Shown here piece after piece: positions 17,875 to 30,919 of a stretch of 64,000 bases of DNA. The translations under genes and the position numbers were made by a program. The stretch is from the NCBI GenBank assembly GCA_040220235.1, contig JAVJTO010000164.1. One strand, given 5' to 3'. Under the pieces are notes generated by a model. It had not been told where the DNA came from. It did not search any database and worked only from the letters and a program-made list of their open reading frames with translations. The DNA comes from Coleofasciculus sp. B1-GNL1-01. GTDB taxonomy: Bacteria; Cyanobacteriota; Cyanobacteriia; Cyanobacteriales; Coleofasciculaceae. Each line of letters begins with the position of its first letter. Position 1 is the first letter of the stretch.

Positions 17875-19605
17875 CTAAAAAGGCTGAAAAAGAATAGAAA
17901 AGGTAATTCCATTATCTTGTAGAGAACCGCCTTCATCTTCAACGCTATTGAGGGGAATTCCCCAATACAGTTGTGCTGACCACGACGGATCACGTTGCCA
18001 CAACAGTCCTAACCCAAGACTGGCTAAGGTGTTAGGATTAGTCACCTCATCCTCGTGGTTCCAAACCGTGCCAATATCGAAAAACGGAGCAATTTGCACA
18101 GTTCCAATGCCCTCAGGTTGGCTGATAATCGGGAAACGAACTTCCACAGAACCAATAATTCCATTGTCAGCCACGCGCTGATTTTGGCGATACCCTCGCA
18201 CGGTATCAATTCCACCAATACTGAACTGTTCTAGCGGTAAGAGCGAATCATTCGACAGTTGCGCTCCCGCACGAGCAATAATGATACTATCAGCCCCTAA
18301 AGCCTGCACCCACTGAAACTGTCCCACCCAACTCATAAACCGCCCATCAGTACCCGTATCATTGATGGTGGCGTCAAACGCATCCAAGCCAAAACTAAAC
18401 TGCGATCGCGCGGCTAAGACGCGATCAGTGGAACGGTTAAGCCAGTCTTGACTAAACCGCACCACAGTGACTTTCGATTCCCCGTCTTCGGGTCCCAGGG
18501 AAAAGGAAAACGGGATATCATCCAGGACAAAGGTTTGGCTTTGACGCAAATCCAGGGACAAGGATAAGGCAAAGTCACTCGTCGGCGTATGGACAATTGG
18601 TTGGCGAAATCCCACAGACAAGGTTTCTGAGTTAGAGTTAATATCTAAGACTGAAAACGGATCTTCAACAATATCACTATCGCTACGGTTATAGCTGAGA
18701 CTTAACGTACCATCCCTGGGATTGAGAGGGATTTCATAGCTCAGACTATACTGATCCACCCCTTCGGTTATGCCATAATCGGCACTGATGCGATCGCCTA
18801 ATCCCAATAGATTCCGATTCTCTATTCTCACTGTTCCCCCCAAGGAACCGACACTGGGAGAGTCTCGATTCTCTATAGTCACAGAACTCATCCAAGGTTT
18901 TGCCTCTTCTATCTCTAGGGTTAACACACTGGTTCCAGCCATGGTTCCTGCTGATAACTCGGCTTGAATTTGATCGAGTACCGGATCAAGTTGCAGCAGT
19001 TGCAGCGCTTCCTCTAAGCGACGAATATTCACCGGGGTTTGCGTCGCCAACTGAATCCGCGATCGCACGTAATCATCCCGCAAACGCTCTAATCCTTGAA
19101 TATCAATGCGTTCAAGGCTCCCTTCAACCACCTGAATGCTCACCACACCATCGGTAATATCCTGAGACGGGAGAAATGCACCGGAAGTGGTGTAGCCATT
19201 GTCTGTATATAACTCGGTAATCGCCGTGCGAATCGCTAAGAGTTCTTCAAACGAAGCATTTTGACCAATAAAGGGTGCAACAGCATCTTGCAATTGTTCT
19301 GAGGAAAAAACCGTACTCCCTAATACCTCAACTCGTTCAACCGTGACATTAACCTCCACATCGGGTGATGGCGTCAGAAAGGGTTCTGGGGTGGGTGTGA
19401 GGGGGGGAAGTGATGGAGGCATCTCTGGGGGCGTCGTCGGCAAAGAAGGCAGATTGGGACGAGTGGGTTCCAGGATACCCGGTGGAATCTCTGGAGTCGT
19501 TTGGCTCATCGATGGCAAGTCTTGAGCTAAGGCGATACCACTCCAGCTCAAGTACACCAGATTTAAAGCCCAAAGAAACCGTTTAAACATAAACCAGTAG
19601 CGCAA
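17875..19605 (-). CDS. ShlB/FhaC/HecB-family TpsB outer-membrane transporter
   Basis: Signal peptide, Pro-rich linker, POTRA (YTDNGYTTSGAFLP), VRGY motif (DTVRGYRQN) and C-terminal Phe; start may be the ATG at 19590. Confidence 0.95.
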   Translation of the reverse strand: MRYWFMFKRFLWALNLVYLSWSGIALAQDLPSMSQTTPEIPPGILEPTRPNLPSLPTTPPEMPPSLPPLTPTPEPFLTPSPDVEVNVTVERVEVLGSTVFSSEQLQDAVAPFIGQNASFEELLAIRTAITELYTDNGYTTSGAFLPSQDITDGVVSIQVVEGSLERIDIQGLERLRDDYVRSRIQLATQTPVNIRRLEEALQLLQLDPVLDQIQAELSAGTMAGTSVLTLEIEEAKPWMSSVTIENRDSPSVGSLGGTVRIENRNLLGLGDRISADYGITEGVDQYSLSYEIPLNPRDGTLSLSYNRSDSDIVEDPFSVLDINSNSETLSVGFRQPIVHTPTSDFALSLSLDLRQSQTFVLDDIPFSFSLGPEDGESKVTVVRFSQDWLNRSTDRVLAARSQFSFGLDAFDATINDTGTDGRFMSWVGQFQWVQALGADSIIIARAGAQLSNDSLLPLEQFSIGGIDTVRGYRQNQRVADNGIIGSVEVRFPIISQPEGIGTVQIAPFFDIGTVWNHEDEVTNPNTLASLGLGLLWQRDPSWSAQLYWGIPLNSVEDEGGSLQDNGITFSILFQPF

Positions 19606-19994
19606 AGGTCATCAGTTGACAAGGATGCAGAGAAACCCCGGACTGTTGATCGCAAAAGGGAGAGGGTAAGCAGCAGAGAATAAACGGTTGATTCGAGTAT
19701 CGGGTTGTCAGAGCCGTTAATCCTGTCCTAATTATTCTGACGATCGCTATCAAGCATTTAGTGAGCCAAAACCTCAATTGATCCCCCATAGCATTCATAC
19801 TCGGTAATATTCTTTTATTTCTTGTTCTACTTTCAGCATCAGTGACCGGAAGAAATACAATATAGTAGCAGCTTAGGAGACGCTTTGTCCCCTGTTTTTA
19901 TCCGTTGAGAAACCCAAAAACCCTCAAATTCAGACTCCCCAGTTCAGATCAAAATTTTATAAAATAGAGTTAATTGTTATCATTGTTCCGAAAA

Positions 19995-22589
19995 ATGTCC
20001 CACGGTTGGCAGTTTTGGCGTCGATTTATTGGATTATCTTTAGCCAGCCTTGTCTTTTGTATCAGCTTTCATCCCTGGTCCACTGGGCAAGCCGAACCCG
20101 CCACAGAAATTCAACAACAGCAATTGCTCACACCGACTTCTGAAAAACAGCTTGTGTCCAAGGGAATTGCATCCTATCAAATCGGAGAATTTTCCCAAGC
20201 CATTAACTTATGGGAACAAGCCTTACCTCAAATTACCGACGAAAATGATCGAGCAATTGTTCACAATAACCTGGCTTTAGCCTATCGGCAAACGGGGGAA
20301 CTGGCTCAGGCGATCGCGCACTGGGAAAAGGCGATCCAAATTTACCAGGCTTCACCGGATGCCGAAAACCAGAAACGCATCGCTGGGCTATTAACCGAAC
20401 AAGCCCAAGCTTACAATGATTTGGGACAACATCCGCGAGCGATTACTCTCTTAGAGTCAGCCATTGAACTCGCCACTAAATACCCAGATTCCTTAGCAGA
20501 AGCTGCCGCTCAAGGCGCTTTAGGCAATGCCCACTGGAGTTTAGGCAACTATGATCAGGCGATTTCCGCCCACAAACAGAGCCTCAAAATTGCCCGCGCA
20601 TTGAATAATAACAGTTTTATCGCCACGGCTTTAAATAACGTGGGGAATGTTTATGTCAGCAGAGCCAGCCGATCCAGTTATCAGGCGCAGGTGGCTGAGT
20701 TAGAAGGAGATGTGCAAGAGGCGACGCGCTTAACCCAGGAGGCGCTTCAGGATTGGACACAAGCCAGACTATTCTTCGAGCAAAGTCTAGAAACGGCGCA
20801 AGCCTTAGGAAGTTTGACCGAAATTAAAGCCTTAATGAATTTAAATCGCTGGGTGATTAGTCGTCATTCAGCCAATGTTGCTGACAATTCAGCCGAACCC
20901 TTGAGTGAGGGTGATCAGGCGTTTCTCCAAAGCAATTGGCAACGAGTCAGAGAACTCCTCCCTGGAATACCTGATTCCCGACAGAAAGCCTATACCCTGA
21001 TTCACCTAGCCGAGAGTTTTCAACAGATCGAGTCAGAGGCTTCAACTCAGGAGTCGATCCAGCTTTTAACCCAAGCTTTAACAGTAGCCCAAAAAATAGG
21101 CGATGCCAAAGCCCAATCCTTTGCCCTAGGGAGCTTAGGACAATTGTATGAATCAGCCGGAGACTACAGCACGGCGATGAATTTAACCCGCCAAGCTGAA
21201 TTTAGCGCCCAGCAAATTCAATCCTCTGATAGTTTATATCGCTGGCAATGGCAAGCGGGGCGGATGCTGAAAGCTAGAGGTAACATCGCCTCAGCCATTT
21301 CTGCTTATGAAGGGGCGATCGCGACGTTGCAAAATATTCGCGGCGATTTAGTCACCAATAAAGAGCTACAACTGGATTTCCGGGAACAGGTTGAACCCAT
21401 TTATCGAGAATTAATTGATTTGCTCCTCAATGCTTCCAGTAGCGATTTGAGCGAAGTCAACTCCCAAGAAACGGTTTCACCCCTCAAAGAGGTAATTGAT
21501 ATCGTCGAACTGCTCAAACTGGCAGAGTTGGAAAACTTTTTCGGCGATGAATGTGTGCAAGTCGCCAAAGATAAAGCTCAAAATGAGCAGGGGTTAGCCG
21601 ATGCCAATGCTGCTGTTATCTATTCAATCATTTTGAATGATCGCACCGAAATGATCCTGCGATCGCCTGATGGTTCCCTAAAAAACTATCCTATCCCTAT
21701 CAGCAAGGAAGATATGGAAGTCGAGATCGAACAGCTACGCTACTTTCTGGAACTACGCACCACAGAACAGTATATTCCTCAAGCAAAAGAAATTTATAAT
21801 CGGCTGATTCGTCCCATGGAAGCTGATCTAGCCGTCATGCAACCCAAGACATTAGTCTTCATCAACGATGGCGTCTTGCGTCAGATCCCCATGAGTGCGC
21901 TGCACGATGGTCAAAACTTTTTGATTGAGAAGTATCCCATTGCGATTACTCCCAGTCTGTCATTAACCACCAGCCAACCGTTAGATCACAATCAGTTAAG
22001 AGCGCTGAGTCTGGGTTTAACTATTGCCAAACCTCCCTTTGCCCCCCTGACGAATGTAGAAGCTGAGTTAAATGTGGTTGAAGAAATCTTAGGCGGGACA
22101 GAGTTAATTAATCAGGAATTTACATTCTCAAACTTACAAGACAAACTACGACGCAAAAATTTTCCCGTGGTTCACATGGCAACCCATGGCAAATTTGGTG
22201 TTGATTCCCAGAGTACCTTTATCCTCGGTTATGATCAACAAATTAGTATTGAAGAACTCGACAATCTATTGCGGTCTCGCGGTCGTCGAGAAGCGGTGAA
22301 ACTGCTCACCTTGAGTGCTTGCCAAACCGCAACGGGAAATAATCGTTCCGCATTAGGAATTGCGGGTGTCGCTGTTCGAGCAGGTGTAGAGAGTGCAGTA
22401 GCGACATTATGGTATATCAATGATGAAGCAACTGTACCGCTGATTGCCGAATTTTATAGCCAACTGCGCCAACCGGATATCACCCGGGCAGAAGCGTTAA
22501 GACAGGCGCAGCTAAAGATGATTTCTAATGTCAATTATAATCATCCAGCCGTTTGGTCGCCGTTTATTCTAATTGGCAATTGGAGTTAG
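19995..22589 (+). CDS. Exported TPR + CHAT (caspase-like, clan CD) protease
   Basis: N-terminal hydrophobic signal, several TPRs, YRWQWQAGR, intact HMATHG and LSACQT dyad, C-terminal HPAVWSPFILIGNW; alternative TTG start at 19974. Confidence 0.93.
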   Translation: MSHGWQFWRRFIGLSLASLVFCISFHPWSTGQAEPATEIQQQQLLTPTSEKQLVSKGIASYQIGEFSQAINLWEQALPQITDENDRAIVHNNLALAYRQTGELAQAIAHWEKAIQIYQASPDAENQKRIAGLLTEQAQAYNDLGQHPRAITLLESAIELATKYPDSLAEAAAQGALGNAHWSLGNYDQAISAHKQSLKIARALNNNSFIATALNNVGNVYVSRASRSSYQAQVAELEGDVQEATRLTQEALQDWTQARLFFEQSLETAQALGSLTEIKALMNLNRWVISRHSANVADNSAEPLSEGDQAFLQSNWQRVRELLPGIPDSRQKAYTLIHLAESFQQIESEASTQESIQLLTQALTVAQKIGDAKAQSFALGSLGQLYESAGDYSTAMNLTRQAEFSAQQIQSSDSLYRWQWQAGRMLKARGNIASAISAYEGAIATLQNIRGDLVTNKELQLDFREQVEPIYRELIDLLLNASSSDLSEVNSQETVSPLKEVIDIVELLKLAELENFFGDECVQVAKDKAQNEQGLADANAAVIYSIILNDRTEMILRSPDGSLKNYPIPISKEDMEVEIEQLRYFLELRTTEQYIPQAKEIYNRLIRPMEADLAVMQPKTLVFINDGVLRQIPMSALHDGQNFLIEKYPIAITPSLSLTTSQPLDHNQLRALSLGLTIAKPPFAPLTNVEAELNVVEEILGGTELINQEFTFSNLQDKLRRKNFPVVHMATHGKFGVDSQSTFILGYDQQISIEELDNLLRSRGRREAVKLLTLSACQTATGNNRSALGIAGVAVRAGVESAVATLWYINDEATVPLIAEFYSQLRQPDITRAEALRQAQLKMISNVNYNHPAVWSPFILIGNWS

Positions 22590-22895: not shown

Positions 22896-23756
22896 TCACG
22901 GTCTTTTAGCAATGTTAAGCCGTTCTTGCTGCGTCACTTGAGTCAAGCCAACTTGCTCCAGCAGAGCCAGGAAATCATCGTTGGTAACTAGCTCATTAGA
23001 ATTCGCGGTTTCAACTTTGGACATTGCAGCTAAGGCATCGTACCAAAGCCCAGCTTCAGCATAACTCCAAGCGCGATCGCGCCACACCTGTGTTGGCACA
23101 TTGTTCTTAGTCGGAGGAGTTGATAGCCGTTGTGGTTCTAAAGCGGCTGGTGTGGATACCCGCTCAATCCAGCTAATGAATACGGGATTAGCCGATGGAT
23201 GCTTGGTATTACAAACCAGAGTGACTGACCATTTGTAGGTTCGTCCAGTTTGCAATTCTGGTCGGTCTTTGGGAAGTTGCAACTGGATCATCCCGGCTTG
23301 GGGAGAGTCGATTTGTTTCTCAAAGAGCGGTTCCGGAACTCCGGGTTCCACGAGAGCAAACCGCATCGGTACACCTTCAGGTACAGGCTGTGATAAGTAC
23401 CAGAAAAAGGTAGGATGACCGGATTTGGTTTGTCCAGCATACTCCTCGGATGGGATCAACAATGTGACTAAATCATTGGTTAACGATTGGCGACAGCCGC
23501 GTGAACCTGAGCCTATTGTCCGCCGTGGATTAGTTGCCACGGGTGGTATATATTGTTTAGACGAACGATGGGTTGACGTTTTGTTTAACTCTGCGTTGGC
23601 AGGTAGATCGTTCCAAATCGAGGTCAGAATTTCTAAATTCTTCGATGACGAAAAAATCCGGGGTGCAGGTAGGTCTAAAAAGCCGAACATTTGCAGGGAA
23701 ACAATTGAAGCTGTCCCGGCAATGATGGTTACTAATTTTTGCCGAGTGGTGTTCAT
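22896..23756 (-). CDS. DUF928-domain protein (exported)
   Basis: RRTIGSGSRGC, HPTFFWY, YKWSVTLVC, YAEAGLWYDAL, LLEQVGL; N-terminal hydrophobic stretch. Confidence 0.88.
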   Translation of the reverse strand: MNTTRQKLVTIIAGTASIVSLQMFGFLDLPAPRIFSSSKNLEILTSIWNDLPANAELNKTSTHRSSKQYIPPVATNPRRTIGSGSRGCRQSLTNDLVTLLIPSEEYAGQTKSGHPTFFWYLSQPVPEGVPMRFALVEPGVPEPLFEKQIDSPQAGMIQLQLPKDRPELQTGRTYKWSVTLVCNTKHPSANPVFISWIERVSTPAALEPQRLSTPPTKNNVPTQVWRDRAWSYAEAGLWYDALAAMSKVETANSNELVTNDDFLALLEQVGLTQVTQQERLNIAKRP

Positions 23757-23912: not shown

Positions 23913-25847
23913 CTACAGCAAAATTTGATAAACGGCAGTTAATTGTTCGCGCCCTTTGAGTCTCACCTGACCGATTTGTTTCGTGGGGAATTGATTGTGT
24001 AGATGCTGGTATGTTTCTTCATTGATTAAAATCCGGCAAATTCCTCCATCGAGAGTTTTATCGTAACTTTCTAATCGAGCCGCTACATTTACGCTATCTC
24101 CTAGGGTGGTGTAGTCAAGCCGTTGAGCATTCCCCAAGCTACCTGTGACGACATCCCCTGTGGCAATTCCCACGCGCATTGCTGTTTGCGGATAGCCTTG
24201 ACGTTGCCATTCTTGATTGAGGGTTTGCAGTTTTTGTGCCATGGCTAACGCACAGTTTACCGCTGCGATCGCATCCTGGTCAATTTCGGCGGATGTCGTG
24301 CGTTTAATCGGTACACCAAACACCGCCATAACTGCATCTCCGATAAACTTATCCACAACACCGCCATGATCTAGCACCGTTCCCGCCATGGCATCCATAT
24401 ATTGATTCAGCCAAGCCATCAGCACTTCCGAACCCATATTTTCTGCTACTGTACTAAACCCTTTCAGGTCTGAGAACAGAACCGTGGCAGTCATCTTCTG
24501 ACCACGTAGACGTCCTTCTTTGAGAAGTTGTTCGCGATCGCGCCAAATTGCTTCGGCGATTTGCTTGGTGACATGGCGACCGAATAAATTCATAACGGTG
24601 TGTCGCTCTTCACGCTCGAAGTTACCGATGTACCCTGTCGTTGCTGTAGCGGCACCCAATAACGCCAAAGCTGGGGGAATCACAGGAATCCACCAACTGC
24701 TGATGATAAAGGCTAAGTAGCTGCTCCCGACCAGACCGACAAGTGCGAACAAAAGGCTAATTACTGTCCAACGAGGGAGTAATTTAGCTAAACCTCCTGC
24801 ATCTCGCAACACCCAACACAGGGTTGCACCCGTCAAAGACCAGAGAAAAATCCAGATCCCTTCGATTGGTTCCGACCAAGTTTTCAGTCCAGAACGCCCT
24901 TCTAGAGCTGAACTCAGCAATTGACTAATCATGTTAGCCTGAACTTCTATCCCAGGTGTGCGCTCTTGGGTGGCAATTTTATCACCACTATAGGGGGTGT
25001 AGAAGAAATCATTCAAGCTAGTTGCCGTTGCCCCAATTAAAACGAGGCGATCACGCATTAAGTCTGGTGGTATCCGGTCTTCAAGTACCTCTGTCAATGA
25101 CACCCTGGGAAAGGTACGAGCCGGACCCTTATAGTTTAACAAAATCTGGTATCCCCCGTCATCAGCACTCACATAACCACCATCATTTGCGGAAAAAGGT
25201 TGAAACGTCCCCTTTCCTAAATGAAAAATCAGGGGATTCGTTTGGGAAGGTTGAGATATGATGTCTTGCTCTGCTAAATACATCAATGCCAGTCTCATAC
25301 CAAAAGAGACGGTGACTTGATCGTCGTTTTCAACCATATAAAGCAATGATCGACGCAGCTTACCATCCGCATCAATCACCACGTTATTAAACCCAACTTG
25401 TTCGCGTTGATCTAGGACGGGTGGGGGAGCTACGCTAGCGCTGGGATCTTGCTCGTTAATTTTTTCTATCCCGATTAAATTGGGAGTTGTTTCAAAAACA
25501 TTGACTAATTCGTCATGACCGGGCAAAACCGATAAATCTCGATACAGGTCAAGACCAATCACTCTCGGGTTTTGCGCTTTAATTTTTTTGAGAAGTTCAG
25601 CCAGGACATTATCCGGAATGGGCCACTGTCCGACTTTTTTTAGATCCGCCTCACTAATTCCCACAACCAGAATTCGTTCATCCACAGGTTCTTGAGGACG
25701 CCAACGAAAATATTGGTCAAGAGCAGCCCATTCCCAAGTCTGTAAAAAGCCGAGAAGTCGCAATAGAATAATGAGTCCAGCCACACCAGGAGCAACCGTC
25801 CAGACACCTCGCCCCGCCCAAATTTTTTGTTTAAGGTCTTTCCACAT
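23913..25847 (-). CDS. CHASE2-domain class III adenylate cyclase
   Basis: TM, CHASE2 (GQWPIPD, VIGLDLYRD, DADGKLRR, PGIEVQA), three TMs and a cyclase domain (LFSDLKGFS, DKFIGDAVM, DYTTLGDSVNVAARLE); the Lys/Thr specificity pair indicates ATP. Alternative start at 25907. Confidence 0.93.
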   Translation of the reverse strand: MWKDLKQKIWAGRGVWTVAPGVAGLIILLRLLGFLQTWEWAALDQYFRWRPQEPVDERILVVGISEADLKKVGQWPIPDNVLAELLKKIKAQNPRVIGLDLYRDLSVLPGHDELVNVFETTPNLIGIEKINEQDPSASVAPPPVLDQREQVGFNNVVIDADGKLRRSLLYMVENDDQVTVSFGMRLALMYLAEQDIISQPSQTNPLIFHLGKGTFQPFSANDGGYVSADDGGYQILLNYKGPARTFPRVSLTEVLEDRIPPDLMRDRLVLIGATATSLNDFFYTPYSGDKIATQERTPGIEVQANMISQLLSSALEGRSGLKTWSEPIEGIWIFLWSLTGATLCWVLRDAGGLAKLLPRWTVISLLFALVGLVGSSYLAFIISSWWIPVIPPALALLGAATATTGYIGNFEREERHTVMNLFGRHVTKQIAEAIWRDREQLLKEGRLRGQKMTATVLFSDLKGFSTVAENMGSEVLMAWLNQYMDAMAGTVLDHGGVVDKFIGDAVMAVFGVPIKRTTSAEIDQDAIAAVNCALAMAQKLQTLNQEWQRQGYPQTAMRVGIATGDVVTGSLGNAQRLDYTTLGDSVNVAARLESYDKTLDGGICRILINEETYQHLHNQFPTKQIGQVRLKGREQLTAVYQILL

Positions 25848-26144
25848 CTTATTTTTTAGCGCTCCTTGGTGGTTAGAAACCCAGCTCTCTCTCCTTACCT
25901 TATTCAAGGGCGAAGTAATTGGAACCGAAAAATTAGGTTTGAAGGAATAAATTATTACAAAAACTTTAAATTTAATGGCACTGAAATAAGCATTTTTTTA
26001 TCGCCCGAACCCTTGAACTACTGTAGGGTAGGCAATGCCCACCAGCATACCAGTCAGTGCCATTCAACTTTGAATTAGCGATCTGCGAAATATTACATAG
26101 GGATAATCATCCCTCAAGTGGGTTGGGTAAAACGATCGCGCAGC

Positions 26145-28226
26145 CTATTTCTCTTGCGATGCAGCCTGATAGCAGATTAAATCATCAGCATTCGCGATCG
26201 CGACCAGTTCTGGAGCCGTACCCACGATTACACGTCCATCAGACGTTACCATCATACCCTGAGCTTCTTGAATTGGGTCGCCGGGTTTCCAGAAACTGGG
26301 AGTTGAGGATTGAGAATTGACTGTTGGCGCAGTAGCTTGTTGTCCAGCATCGCCACTAATTCCCTGAACCTGAGTAACGGAATAGTTACCCTGTAACGGA
26401 TTATAGGGGTTATTCGGTAAACCCCCTGTACCTGTAACAATAAAGCTACCTTGCTCCTTATTGCGGTGGGTGAGGCAACTATCAGCAATCACTTGCTCTG
26501 GTGGCAAAAAATTGGTTGATAGTGGCGAGAGGGAATCTTGATTCAAATTCAGCGAGGCTATAAATAAATTACCAGCATCACCGCTACCCAATGCCTCGAC
26601 TGAAATATCCACTCGGTCATTGCCCCGAAATGGCTCAAACGAACCTGGGTTGCGACCTACAGCTGTCCCTTGACCACTGGAGAAAAAGTCTGCCAGAAAT
26701 ACGGGAGAGATAATGCTGATATTACCACCCCTGCCATCAACCGCATTTGCCAGAATATCACTATTTTCTAGGGCGATAAAAACATCGGAGTTAATTGTAA
26801 TATTGCCACCACCACCGATACTGTCGAAAACACTGGTACTAATCAAGCTACCATCGCGTAGACGAATATCTTCAGCCGTGATATCGATGTTACCTCCTCC
26901 TGCTTGATTTGAAGTAGCCGTAATTTCAGCTCCATCTCGAACTGTCAAATTTTCAGTTTGAATGGTTAGCTTGCCAGCATCACCCATCCCTTCACTGGAA
27001 ACAGCTAACCCACTCGGTCCCACAATTGGTGAGCTGCCACTTATCTCTACAGACTCAGAGGCGGTTACGGTTAAGTTGCCTCCCTCACCTCGAGCCGAGC
27101 CAAATGGCGTAACTATAGAACCCGTAGATATTCCAGCCCCATCTTGCACAATTAATCGCCTCGTGGTAATTCTCACGTCTCCTGCATTCCCATCACCAAA
27201 TGTGACCGCATTCAAGTTACTTGAAAAGCCATTGGCTGAAACACCAATTAGTTCTACAGACTCCGAAGCTGTTACATTCACAGTTCCAGCTGATACTGAT
27301 CCTAAGGTGATAGAGGAAATTTGAGCACCATCGGTGAGTCTTACCTGCCTGCCTTGTATTTGAATATCACCACTCCCAATATCAACACCTGTTCCGATGG
27401 GAGGTGGAAAAGGACCTAGATCAGTCACATCAATCGTAGCTTCTTGAGACAGGTGAATATCTTGGAAATTCTGAACATTTTCATAATTGAGAGCAAAACC
27501 ACGATTTGTGGATTGCAGATTGACCAAACTATTACCAGAAACACCTCCTACCTCAACCCGTCCTCCTGGCGCAGTCAGATCACCTCCCTCTAGCAGTACT
27601 TCACCCCCTACTAGAGCTAAACTTTTACCCGTCCGCACCTGAAGACCCACTGAATCTGAAATTGCACCCATTGTTCCGTCCGGACTAGCTTGAGAACGGT
27701 TAACTATCCGTCCTGCTGCGGTTCCAAATTGTAGTCCTACAGGAATACTCACAGTCAGCACAGGTGAGGCTATGCGGTCAGTGCTAAACTCTGTACCATC
27801 TTCAAATTTCAAACTATTTGCTGTACTTGCTACAAAGGAGCCACCAATGCTGAGGGAGGCATTGGAACCAAAGATAATGCCGTTGGGATTGAGGAGAAAG
27901 AGATTAGCATTACCGTTCGCTTTGAGCATGCCATCAATGTTTGAGATGGAATCGCCAGTCACCCGACTAATGACGTTTTGGACATCCAGGCTATTTTTGA
28001 AGAAGGCTGATCCATTGGTAGGTATGGAAAACTCGCGAAAGCTATGGAAGAGGTTCTCTCCGGCTTGATTTTCCCCAGTGATTGTAAAGTTAAGGTTATC
28101 GGCAGTCTTAACGTCGGTAGATAAACTTCCATCAGAGGCAATTTGCCCTTGAACTGACTTAACTGGAATTAAAATGAAGAAGACAATAGGTGGAACCAGC
28201 CAGAGTAAGTAATAACGTCGTTTCAT
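26145..28226 (-). CDS. Filamentous haemagglutinin-like TpsA exoprotein
   Basis: Signal peptide; TPS domain NLFHSF...NLFLLNPNGIIFG; G(N/D)AG beta-helix repeats; C-terminal TGTGGLP...EAQG cyanobacterial tail; AGGAG-like RBS region. Confidence 0.93.
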   Translation of the reverse strand: MKRRYYLLWLVPPIVFFILIPVKSVQGQIASDGSLSTDVKTADNLNFTITGENQAGENLFHSFREFSIPTNGSAFFKNSLDVQNVISRVTGDSISNIDGMLKANGNANLFLLNPNGIIFGSNASLSIGGSFVASTANSLKFEDGTEFSTDRIASPVLTVSIPVGLQFGTAAGRIVNRSQASPDGTMGAISDSVGLQVRTGKSLALVGGEVLLEGGDLTAPGGRVEVGGVSGNSLVNLQSTNRGFALNYENVQNFQDIHLSQEATIDVTDLGPFPPPIGTGVDIGSGDIQIQGRQVRLTDGAQISSITLGSVSAGTVNVTASESVELIGVSANGFSSNLNAVTFGDGNAGDVRITTRRLIVQDGAGISTGSIVTPFGSARGEGGNLTVTASESVEISGSSPIVGPSGLAVSSEGMGDAGKLTIQTENLTVRDGAEITATSNQAGGGNIDITAEDIRLRDGSLISTSVFDSIGGGGNITINSDVFIALENSDILANAVDGRGGNISIISPVFLADFFSSGQGTAVGRNPGSFEPFRGNDRVDISVEALGSGDAGNLFIASLNLNQDSLSPLSTNFLPPEQVIADSCLTHRNKEQGSFIVTGTGGLPNNPYNPLQGNYSVTQVQGISGDAGQQATAPTVNSQSSTPSFWKPGDPIQEAQGMMVTSDGRVIVGTAPELVAIANADDLICYQAASQEK

Positions 28227-28386
28227 AGGAGTAAGTGCTTTCTCGTAGACCTATTCTGAGTCTAACAACTCACACTTATAAAGGTTGAAAGCACAGATAG
28301 ACTTTGAACAGACGCCTTTAATTATTTGGATGGCTCATAAGGATTATGTTCAGGGCAGGGATTATTCGCATTTAATGCACATTGGT

Positions 28387-28578
28387 TCACCAACACCTCC
28401 CCCAAAATCGAATACAAAAATCTGAGGTAGTCGTATCCTCTATCTGCTGTTGAGGACTCACAGGCTGGTCTTGCCTAATTCTATTCTCCATGTTAGCATT
28501 CGCAGAAACAGGAGCTGCGCCAACTTGAGTAGAAAATGTTAAGCTGAGAGCGATCGCGGTAGATGCAACGAGTTTCAT
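28387..28578 (-). CDS. Small exported peptide precursor with a C-terminal Cys-bracketed aromatic motif
   Basis: 63 aa; GGAGA Shine-Dalgarno before the ATG; Sec-type signal MKLVASTAIALSLTFSTQVGAAPVSA; ends FCIRFWGRCW; co-oriented directly upstream of tpsA. Confidence 0.75.
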   Translation of the reverse strand: MKLVASTAIALSLTFSTQVGAAPVSANANMENRIRQDQPVSPQQQIEDTTTSDFCIRFWGRCW

Positions 28579-28763
28579 TTTTCTTTTCTCCGAGTAGATG
28601 TACGAACCTGTGAGCTTGGTGTGATTAACCTAGCCCTAAAATTTTGAGAGATAAATTGCTCTTGTCAGAGACTTTTTATTCAGTTGTTGGAGTTACCCTG
28701 TCAGTGGCGCACCCGATTAGTAGAAGTTTGAGAGAAATCTTTTTCTGCCACTGCTCTATAATT

Positions 28764-28807: not shown

Positions 28808-29740
28808 GCTTCATTGAGAGTTCATACAGCCTTAATAAGTGCCTCTTATGGCTTAATTTTTCTTTACAGAAGTTCTGGAGTAAGGAGTACACCGAGGTTA
28901 CGGCGTTAGAGGCAATTAAACGTAATACCCAAAGCTGTAGACTATAGGCTATGACTGTAGTTGAACCGAAATACATTGGAAATACATCCTGGGTTTAGTG
29001 GTGTTTGAGTTACGGTTATCCGTTGAATCAGATTAAATTATTCGTCGAGCCGGATGGGACTTCTCTTTTCCGTCCAAGTGAGATATATCGATTCTTCGCT
29101 AGAGGGTTGCAACAGTGAAATCCTTATGGTGCATGGGTTGCTTTTTATTATTTTGTCAGAGTTTTTTAACAAAGTAAGGCTATGTTAAGAGTTGTAATGT
29201 AAGATTTGCTTATATTAAGGATTATGACGCAATACTTCGTAACATTAAACTTACTATAGAATTACTGACATGGTTTCGCTTCACATCTCCCACCCTACTG
29301 AGTTACAAGTAAGTAATTTTACTCAGCCTCCTGAAGATAGAACTCTTTCCCTGGCAGGTTGTTCCAGACATACCCCTCACATCTACATAGCGGGAAATTC
29401 CCATGAATCTTGCCCTTAAGTTTATTTTGGGCGGAAAGATACTCAACTCCATTGCCTTGATTGAGCAACATGCTTACCTTGAACTCACATCCACCCGCAT
29501 TAAAGATCTCAATCGTGAAAATTCGGTGAAAGAGAAGTCAACTCAGTCTCATCTGATAAACTGTGCAGCCATCTCAAGAGACTATTTTCCTAATGAGCCT
29601 CGAACCATAAATCGCTACAATCAAACTCTAGTAAGCATTTCAGTTACATCAGGTCACGCTGGTCTATTTACAAATCAAAAGGCTGAATAACTGCTAAAAG
29701 CCCTATATAATCAGTATTTCTCCACCCTATTGCTTATGAC

Positions 29741-29762
29741 ACACCGAGCGAAGCCGAGGTGT
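29741..29762. repeat. Small dispersed repeat (GAGCGAAG(C/T)CGA core)
   Basis: ACACCGAGCGAAGCCGAGGTGT; reverse copies at 31651-31672, 37734-37777 and 38332-38353, and a copy at 54378-54414. Confidence 0.75.
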
Positions 29763-29772
29763 TGCCTATTGC

Positions 29773-30768
29773 CTATTGCCCAGCGCGAAGCGCCGTATCT
29801 GGGAAATCGCTGAAAAGTCCATCAATTCCCAGCCGATAGAATTGCTGATACTCCAACTCAGGATTACCTTGATAGTCGGGGGCGAGAAAAACCTCTTCAT
29901 TGCGGAATGTCCAGCCATGAACCTGCAAACCCTGAGCATGAGCGTCATCGAGTAAGGAGGTAGGGGGTAATAAGTAACCATCTGCCCCCGTGGGTACAAT
30001 TAAACGTTTGTTAACCCCGATCGCATCTGCATAATCCGCAATTTCCCGTAACCCCTGAGGCGTTACCAGATCTCCATACGTCCGATTGCTATTGTCATGG
30101 TGTTGAGGATGAGCAATAAAATCGTAGGGTTGACCGATGTCGTTCACTAATTGTACCAAGGATACATCGGTGATTTGCTTCAGCGCTTTCAAGTTCGCCG
30201 TTTCAAAGGATTGGATGAACACAGGAGAATTGCGATCGCCCAATCCGTACTGGTTGAGGATAGTTACCAACGGTTCTTCTAACGAGAGTCCGATCGCGTT
30301 AAAGTAGGTGGGATGCTTGGTTTCTGGATAAATGCCAATCATGCATCCAGTAGCAGCACTTTGGCGTTGAACTAGCTCAATAATATCTACCAGAGTAGGG
30401 ATATCAAACAACCCATCGAATTCTGTCGAACGCAGGTGAGGTAATCGTTCTTTGACTCGTAGGGTTTTTAGTTCAGCCAGAGTAAAGTCCTCAGTAAACC
30501 AACCCGTGACAGTTTGCCCATCAATTATTTTAGTGGTTTGGCGATCTCGAAATTCTGGACGAGTCACCACATCGGTAGTACCCGAAATTTCATTTTCGTG
30601 ACGCGCCACCAATACCCCATCCTGTGTCATCACCAAATCGGGTTCAATGTAATCCGCCCCCATCCGTATCGCTAACTCATAAGCCGCGAGGGTATGTTCG
30701 GGACGATAGCCACTTGCGCCTCGGTGAGCAATCACCAAAGGACGGGAATTTTGGTCACGCGATCGCAT
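29773..30768 (-). CDS. Glycerophosphodiester phosphodiesterase
   Basis: [50 protein letters not shown]; start re-called to the ATG at 30768. Confidence 0.93.
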
Positions 30769-30919
30769 CCTTATATATATAGCACTACGAGGATAGGTTA
30801 GGAGATCAGTTGCTCCCAAGGGAGAACGCTCCCCCAGCTCCCAGACGTGCCATGGCACGTCTGGAACATTGGCTTCCCCCGCTCCCCCTCACCACAGCAC
30901 TTATTCAGCAGCCCCTAAT

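Follow-up and report, generated by a model that had tools for sequence, protein, structure and literature searches.

What does a 63-residue, apparently exported peptide act upon when its gene lies directly upstream of a two-partner secretion gene? The question is raised by a locus of a mat-forming cyanobacterium, within the 64-kb stretch of DNA analysed here (the window). A first-pass annotation had described a tiny exported prepropeptide with a Shine-Dalgarno sequence, a Sec signal, a polar spacer and a two-Cys core, laid out like a pheromone or antimicrobial precursor and tied to a tpsA/CHASE2-cyclase neighbourhood. What that description missed is that the core is hypervariable, and that it and the adjacent TpsA, likely its binding partner, diverge together as a single block.

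Organisation of the locus

The peptide gene heads a same-strand run that continues with genes for a 693-aa TpsA, a CHASE2 adenylate cyclase and a DUF928 protein; beyond these lie a convergent gene for a TPR-CHAT protease and then tpsB. The genes downstream of the peptide are as follows.

26145..28226, minus strand: TpsA exoprotein, 693 aa, TPS domain and beta-helix, the proposed peptide receptor (PF05860; AlphaFold2; Foldseek)
23913..25907, minus strand: CHASE2 domain, membrane helices and class III nucleotide cyclase, the proposed output (PF05226, PF00211)
22896..23756, minus strand: DUF928 protein with a hydrophobic N-terminus, constant cassette partner (PF06051; follows the cyclase gene in orthologous loci)
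19974..22589, plus strand: TPR-CHAT caspase-like protease with a signal-like N-terminus, a neighbour in the genus (PF12770)
17875..19605, minus strand: TpsB (ShlB/FhaC) outer-membrane transporter, presumed exporter and anchor of TpsA (PF03865, PF08479; position conserved in the genus)

The proposed tie to this neighbourhood holds. The gene order is kept in all seven genus loci that carry the whole cassette. TpsA, with its TPS domain and beta-helix, and TpsB, with its POTRA and ShlB domains, have the make-up of a two-partner secretion system. The cyclase contains the motifs DKFIGD, DYTTLGD and NVAARLE, and we take its Lys and Thr to indicate ATP specificity under the class III rules. AgrB, AgrC, ComQ and ComP were absent from a Pfam scan of 16 ORFs around the peptide gene, and neither a modification enzyme nor a dedicated transporter was found in the window cassette or its orthologs. 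DUF928 occurs in 108 of 121 genomes of the order. The host genome (G000) contains 47 TPS-domain matches and 30 DUF928 matches (29 over the cut-off), many of them in TpsA-CHAT-DUF928 clusters. One paper mentions DUF928, in a passage that places it beside a CHASE2 gene (PMC5587647), and the caspase-CHASE2 fusions in the relevant part of PMC8195603 are described without these cassette partners. Many unrelated high-depth contigs and opposite-strand joints suggest dispersed repeats in short intergenic segments at approximately 25780-26070, 29575-29845 and 30660-30900.

A constant leader and a hypervariable core

The peptide gene and the predicted parts of its product, all on the minus strand, are arranged as follows.

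28588..28591, minus strand: Shine-Dalgarno GGAG, 9 nt 5' of the ATG (sequence; upstream letters identical in metagenome loci)
28387..28578, minus strand: prepropeptide gene P0001, 63 aa (translation, homologs, leader dN/dS)
28501..28578, minus strand: Sec-type signal peptide, residues 1-26 (98% mean identity over residues 1-22; A26 invariant)
28426..28500, minus strand: polar pro-region, residues 27-51 (86% mean identity in the genus; outside the predicted interface)
28387..28425, minus strand: hypervariable aromatic core, residues 52-63, with Cys55 and Cys62 (37% mean identity; DNA matches break here)

Translation of 28387-28578 yields the 63-aa product, and on sequence evidence the ORF is a genuine gene. 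A DNA search of the genus matched it in all nine Coleofasciculus genomes, and all 23 candidates proved to be homologs with a near-invariant N-terminus, every named one from Coleofasciculus. Codons 1-48 are under purifying selection (pN 0.039, pS 0.111, dN/dS 0.33 over 13 distinct leader DNAs). The ORF, the GGAG at 28591-28588 and this conserved leader bear out the earlier description of an exported prepropeptide. The expectation that gene callers could easily miss it was mistaken, as the peptide is already deposited as a "hypothetical protein" (e.g. MC7420_3133). A heuristic scan of the host genome returned 31 small exported-looking intergenic ORFs, among which this is the sole one with two Cys and four aromatics in its tail; the genome has one DNA match to the peptide gene and no second protein match. 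No Pfam or NCBIfam family matched the peptide (NCBIfam was run with six peptides), and a PDB sequence search returned nothing below E 0.12. Atlas matches all remained below 0.9 (best 0.81, "Osc7112_2153 family protein", and 0.83) and are leads only. A promoter scan gave 3 sites against 7.2 expected, and no terminator was found by the same survey. Of 23 sequencing runs listed, 19 contain part of the 64-kb stretch (13 recorded as RNA). Four runs were examined, all as contigs, two of which cover all 30 bins, intergenic DNA included; because contigs from RNA-labelled runs also span intergenic DNA, they do not demonstrate transcription of the peptide gene.

The Sec signal stands; the V/A-x-A motif makes processing after A26 more likely than after A28, and A26 is the sole invariant column in an alignment of 15 distant homologs. 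Cys55 and Cys62 would be joined by a disulfide. Homologs were counted as 84 distinct full-length sequences, 45 of them of genus type, with the repeat proteins P0024 and P0027 and the 410-aa P0094 excluded beforehand. Among the 45 genus alleles mean identity is 98% in the signal, 86% in the spacer and 37% in the C-terminal core, with 32 different cores represented; a constant leader followed by a variable core is the layout of a RiPP-like precursor. At least two Cys are found in 76 of the 84 homologs and none in seven, whose cores are Trp/Pro-rich; one homolog is apparently truncated. The two-Cys core of the first-pass annotation is thus common without being obligatory. The window's core also occurs behind another leader allele (P0056), which points to core exchange by recombination, and dN/dS above 1 was not found between alignable cores. 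As a source of this diversity, a diversity-generating retroelement was rejected because there is no template repeat or second copy and the cores differ in length; the intergenic DNA changes too. A silent-cassette mechanism was also discarded, the host genome holding no paralog or template.

Core composition bears on the antimicrobial half of the original proposal, in which the core would be a beta-hairpin antimicrobial directed against competitors, TpsA an immunity protein or sink for the self allele, and the cyclase a reporter of attack. The Arg/Trp/Phe-rich disulfide hairpins and Trp/Pro-rich linear cores do recall tachyplesin- and indolicidin-like peptides. However, net charge is +1 in 30 and +2 in 17 of 55 cores (0 and +3 in four each), so that 47 of 55 carry a charge that is low for membrane-lytic peptides. 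The cores average 11 residues, 31% of them aromatic, and some distant ones are rings of 2-4 residues. The gene is single-copy, with no orphan immunity array and no modification enzymes. We therefore consider this reading improbable, even though toxin-immunity pairs too are reported to vary as blocks (PMC3482391), and a pheromone is now the leading interpretation of the layout.

Core, intergenic DNA and the 5' part of tpsA form one divergent block

26900..28430, minus strand: divergent allele block, ends approximate, comprising the core, intergenic DNA and the 5' 60% of tpsA (DNA identity, pS)

The block extends over approximately 1.5 kb and includes the first ~410 tpsA codons. DNA identity between ~28430 and 26900 is 43-83%, compared with mostly 89-99% in the flanks in the closest genomes; it drops at the leader/core junction and recovers near tpsA codon 410. 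Contigs from four of four community runs likewise break at 28429-28435. Over one set of ten loci, pS reaches 0.47 for the portion of tpsA inside the block and 0.17 for the cyclase gene, which indicates that the block alleles are older than the strains carrying them. In the seven genus loci with the whole cassette, TpsA is 63-72% identical to the window copy (best segment); the cyclase, DUF928, CHAT and TpsB proteins are 86-98% identical, and the CHASE2 adenylate cyclase does not vary along with the block. Loci L035 and L038 illustrate this separation: their cyclase DNA is 100.0% identical, their cores are unrelated and their TpsAs share 66% identity. Identical cores are accompanied by 99-100% identical TpsA N-regions (L016/L020/L040 and L038/L039), although physical linkage by itself makes core and tpsA vary together. 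As a control, the N-regions of peptide-less TpsA orthologs in the genus are 82-97% identical (10 comparisons), versus 64-71% for peptide-linked TpsA. The locus thus has the form expected of pherotypes, with the peptide gene and the 5' part of its partner in one hypervariable block between conserved flanks.

Length variation was also seen. TpsA ranges from 693 to about 830 aa through gain or loss of whole beta-helix coils, and measures 828 aa in L016 and 761 aa in L020 despite identical cores. The CHASE2 domain has insertions of 20 aa in L019 and 13 aa in L021, whose cores are near-identical, and none in L035, which has a related core.

The variable face of TpsA and a model of the complex

26919..27671, minus strand: TpsA residues 186-436, one beta-sheet face with its loops, the predicted binding groove and most variable surface

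A single-sequence fold of TpsA was unusable (pLDDT 41) and was replaced by an alignment-based AlphaFold2 model, which contains a TPS domain and a beta-helix (mean pLDDT 75). Foldseek matched it to EtpA, HxuA and HMW1 (E 1e-10 to 6e-4). The outward positions of the three strands per coil were assigned by eye from the sequence period and scored before the complex result. The most variable face has an entropy of 1.36 (n=17) compared with 0.99 and 0.83 (n=12 each) for the others (P=0.016, a test that was not blind since the face was chosen after per-site counts had been seen), and four loops are variable as well. On this face dN/dS above 1 was not found (pN 0.31, pS 0.49-0.62).

We predicted the complex of TpsA(28-693) with peptide residues 31-63 in three runs, alongside three controls. 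The model scored 0.90 and the controls 0.57, 0.00 and 0.00; the individual runs gave 0.90, 0.90 and 0.03, with at least 2% of contacts in agreement and a partner pLDDT of at least 35. Of 157 solved complexes, 116 attain the mark it reached, as do 2 of 215 mismatched pairs; these figures are approximate here because our own alignments were used. All confident contacts are made by peptide residues 52-63, on the variable TpsA face and its loops. The model therefore supports binding of the core to the variable face of the beta-helix, with the caveat that the pass may stem from likeness to solved complexes; the single run at 0.03 and the score of 0.57 for an unrelated control peptide suggest that the groove may attract peptides in general.

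Predicted contact positions in TpsA are markedly variable, with an entropy of 1.41 (n=32) versus 0.76 (n=203) elsewhere (P=2e-5) and versus 0.85 (n=101) for polar non-contact positions (P=5e-4); the test used 32 of the 34 listed contact residues, 434 and 436 falling outside the aligned region. Within the same five genomes, groove-equivalent positions are 47% identical in peptide-linked TpsA versus 100% and 82% in two peptide-less sets, which were aligned at lower identity. In a second TpsA lineage (n=18, taken as peptide-linked from one inspected locus, L051) contact entropy is 0.38 versus 0.19 (P=0.02). Core similarity and groove identity were uncorrelated among 11 alleles (Mantel r=0.15, p=0.13).

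That last result, together with complete linkage and the lack of any dN/dS above 1 in the core or on the variable face, would fit a reading in which peptide and TpsA do not interact, TpsA diversifying against phages or grazers and the peptide tail travelling with it as recombination is initiated in the conserved leader. Such hitch-hiking is difficult to reconcile with the Cys pair or Trp/Pro pattern retained through wholesale core change in 83 of 84 homologs, with peptide-less tpsA genes that are not hypervariable, with a gene order that recurs in four families, and with a complex model that passes the mark (0.90 versus 0.57 for the best control). We consider it quite improbable. Conversely, taking the signal, plug or adhesion, and antimicrobial-immunity readings together, it is very probable that peptide and TpsA form a cognate pair.

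The neighbouring CHAT protease

Release of the core by the CHAT protease, cutting after Asp, had also been proposed. The CHAT His and Cys motifs are intact (HMATHG at 734 and LSACQT at 780) and the gene is adjacent throughout the genus, as would suit a peptide that was mainly a substrate or regulator of an exported protease. However, the position two residues ahead of the first Cys differs among the 76 homologs (22 Gly, 18 Asp, 14 Leu, 11 Asn), so that this Asp is not a conserved cleavage site. An IED motif with D48 is found in all 45 genus alleles and a cut there is possible, but D48 is not conserved beyond it. Strains share 90-98% identity in CHAT, which shows no co-variation, and neither CHAT nor ShlB/TpsB turned up in the DNA retrieved from around this cassette's orthologs in two other genera. 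The Asp-directed proposal is thus not upheld, and a role of the peptide centred on CHAT appears very improbable.

Distribution beyond the genus

A homologous peptide lies directly upstream of the orthologous tpsA in four other genera of the family (4 of 24 loci); the remaining 20 comprise 18 paralogous TpsAs lacking a peptide and two genus loci in which the upstream gene is not fully covered. The conserved unit is peptide-tpsA-cyclase-DUF928. Following up weak profile matches revealed related peptides immediately 5' of tpsA in two additional families, and in two of the loci (L122 and L124) peptide and tpsA sit beside CHASE2-GGDEF-EAL sensors and DUF928. Further matches were upstream of tpsA in 4 of 4 cases in one follow-up and 3 of 6 in another. 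A fourth family has a peptide with an unrelated leader, again constant, carrying three different Cys/Trp cores and located upstream of tpsA in three of three loci. In these three further families tpsA-upstream peptides occur in a minority of cassettes. Nine of the 11 weak profile matches were examined and gave two tpsA-upstream peptides, five cases of noise, one truncated copy and one 133-aa secreted protein, the last two without tpsA. The other three of the six non-self matches in the second follow-up were noise, and in a further search four of six non-self matches hit long ORFs. In a quick version of the TpsA tree, the peptide-linked TpsAs of two families group with a support of 94, below the starred level, and the f36 one branches separately.

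The idea that every cassette has a peptide was rejected. By a heuristic applied to 60 DUF928 loci, a small exported ORF lies upstream of 1 of 35 TpsA genes (15 of 552 for other genes), and in the host genome a peptide accompanies 1 of 47 TPS matches, so most cassettes work without one.

Several individual loci deserve description. Genome G001 has two different peptide-tpsA pairs (L025:83-2893 and L024:83-2849), both on contigs that start at the shared leader; no sensor gene follows the L025 pair within 10 kb downstream. Of 24 further DUF928 loci, two have a RiPP cluster in place of the peptide gene upstream of tpsA. At L102:2127-5164 (titled Symplocastrum torsivum) the cluster occupies the peptide-gene slot between a CHAT gene and tpsA-CHASE2 cyclase-DUF928, and encodes a TIGR03975 radical SAM C-methyltransferase, a haem-oxygenase-like enzyme and an 85-aa candidate precursor. 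At L108:9-4361, directly upstream of tpsA-CHASE2 cyclase-DUF928, are a B12 radical SAM enzyme, an 85-aa Nif11-type precursor that matches TIGR03798 above the cut-off, and a 634-aa protein with a C-terminal methyltransferase. The 133-aa secreted-looking protein (L130:5794-6195, G015) has a comparable signal peptide, ends in a Cys-Trp-rich hairpin and lies upstream of an opposite-strand HlyD gene with no tpsA nearby. The truncated copy (L123:7028-7156, G018) is a 42-aa version of the L122 peptide that stops short of any core; it lies next to an ABC transporter operon, with no tpsA.

A proposed strain-specific signal with a matching receptor

The constant leader, strain-variable ring tip and co-varying TpsA face suggest an undescribed peptide-receptor kin-recognition system in a mat-forming cyanobacterium. 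The reading we favour, with a probability of roughly 0.55, is a strain-specific peptide signal with a matching TpsA receptor encoded downstream and a cyclase output. Following Sec export, residues 1-26 would be removed, the two Cys would close a short aromatic ring outside the cytoplasm, and the pro-region may be trimmed by a protease. The core, presumably released from the cell, would then bind the groove on one face of the TpsA beta-helix, as the complex model and the pattern of variation suggest. Occupancy could be relayed via the conserved C-terminal part of TpsA, TpsB, DUF928 and possibly CHAT to the CHASE2 cyclase, changing cAMP. This relay is the weakest step; we infer it from gene order and the Sinorhizobium meliloti precedent described below. 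Since core and groove lie in one recombining block, strains would exchange signal and receptor alleles as matched sets and retain a shared output, which would give rise to communication groups among neighbouring filaments. Counting against this reading are the link from TpsA to CHASE2, which consists of gene order alone, and the different output domain of the distant loci L122 and L124, GGDEF-EAL.

An alternative is that the peptide binds its own TpsA as a cis-acting plug, self-tag or bridge and does not diffuse. As a plug it would occupy the groove until displaced by a foreign ligand; as a bridge it would join the TpsAs of like filaments in kin-specific adhesion. Either form accounts for the co-variation, the groove and the complex model equally, and suits closest folds that are adhesins and protein-binding exoproteins, as well as the sensor-less pair at L025. 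The core is also very hydrophobic (31% aromatic), which would limit diffusion. On the other hand, the CHASE2 output gene is constantly linked in complete loci, and the signal-spacer-ring layout resembles that of secreted peptide hormones and pheromones. We judge a non-diffusing role unlikely and retain the signal-receptor interpretation.

More tentatively, and at somewhat less than even odds, the locus may be one instance of a cyanobacterial polymorphic peptide language, in which Sec-exported disulfide-ring peptides are read by matching TpsA surface receptors through a CHASE2 relay. On this view the widespread TpsA-CHASE2-DUF928(-CHAT-TpsB) cassettes would serve generally as receptors for peptides or proteins, their ligand sometimes encoded just upstream as a simple prepropeptide or an enzyme-modified RiPP. 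If the signal-receptor interpretation is correct, TpsA proteins gain a role as allele-specific peptide receptors, the CHASE2 cassette acquires a defined, synthesisable input, and a molecular route opens by which filaments that form mats and bundles could recognise self. The dozens of core/TpsA pairs found in nature lend themselves to direct tests with synthetic peptides of 10-15 residues. In one account, Microcoleus vaginatus bundles are virtually monospecific and the sensing mechanism is described as unresolved (PMC13594678).

Comparison with known systems

In the literature searched, with most subscription journals outside its scope, we found neither the peptide nor the cassette described, nor any TpsA whose peptide ligand is encoded alongside it, and nothing similar to polymorphic peptide signalling in cyanobacteria. 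A link between CHAT and the aminopyruvatide cluster was considered and dropped, as the main text of the preprint mentions neither CHAT nor CHASE. We know of no co-encoded peptide ligand for two-partner-secreted beta-helix proteins. HxuA-hemopexin, EtpA, HMW1 and FHA share the TPS domain and fold with TpsA, and entry 4rt6 is a hemopexin complex, but no matched entry is a complex with a self-made peptide. RiPP precursors, including the Sec-exported bufferins, similarly combine a conserved leader with a variable Cys-containing core; the present cassette differs in having no modifying enzyme, and no NCBIfam precursor family matches the peptide. According to PMC12452194, bacterial RiPP precursors seldom carry Sec signals.

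For the proposed output, S. meliloti provides the closest parallel: its CHASE2 cyclases are described as answering a peptidic signal via the outer-membrane protein NsrA (PMC7529298; PMC13001267). The NsrA - CyaK/CyaD1/CyaD2 system thus shares a CHASE2 cyclase, a peptidic signal and an outer-membrane component with our model. It differs in having a plant protein as its signal and a beta-barrel as its receptor, whereas here the signal would be self-encoded and polymorphic and the proposed receptor a TpsA.

Polymorphic peptide signalling is well known in Gram-positive bacteria. In Staphylococcus aureus the agr hypervariable region is described as comprising the 3' part of agrB, agrD and the 5' part of agrC (PMC3673130), so that, as here, a cyclic peptide gene and the 5' part of its partner gene vary together. 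In contrast to agr, the cassette has no AgrB peptidase or AgrC kinase, the ring would be a disulfide exported by a Sec signal from a Gram-negative host, what co-varies with the peptide is a secreted beta-helix instead of a membrane kinase, and at least 32 cores are found against four agr groups. For Bacillus ComQXPA, communication groups are reported to be linked to a polymorphic locus whose clusters are 65-70% identical in DNA (PMC4408185), comparable to the block described here, which is mostly 60-80% identical between alleles; unlike ComQXPA, the cassette has no prenyltransferase or histidine kinase, and its membrane sensor is invariant between alleles. Judged by its genes, the locus is laid out like agr and comQXP yet is a member of neither, its components being unrelated and its membrane sensor invariant.
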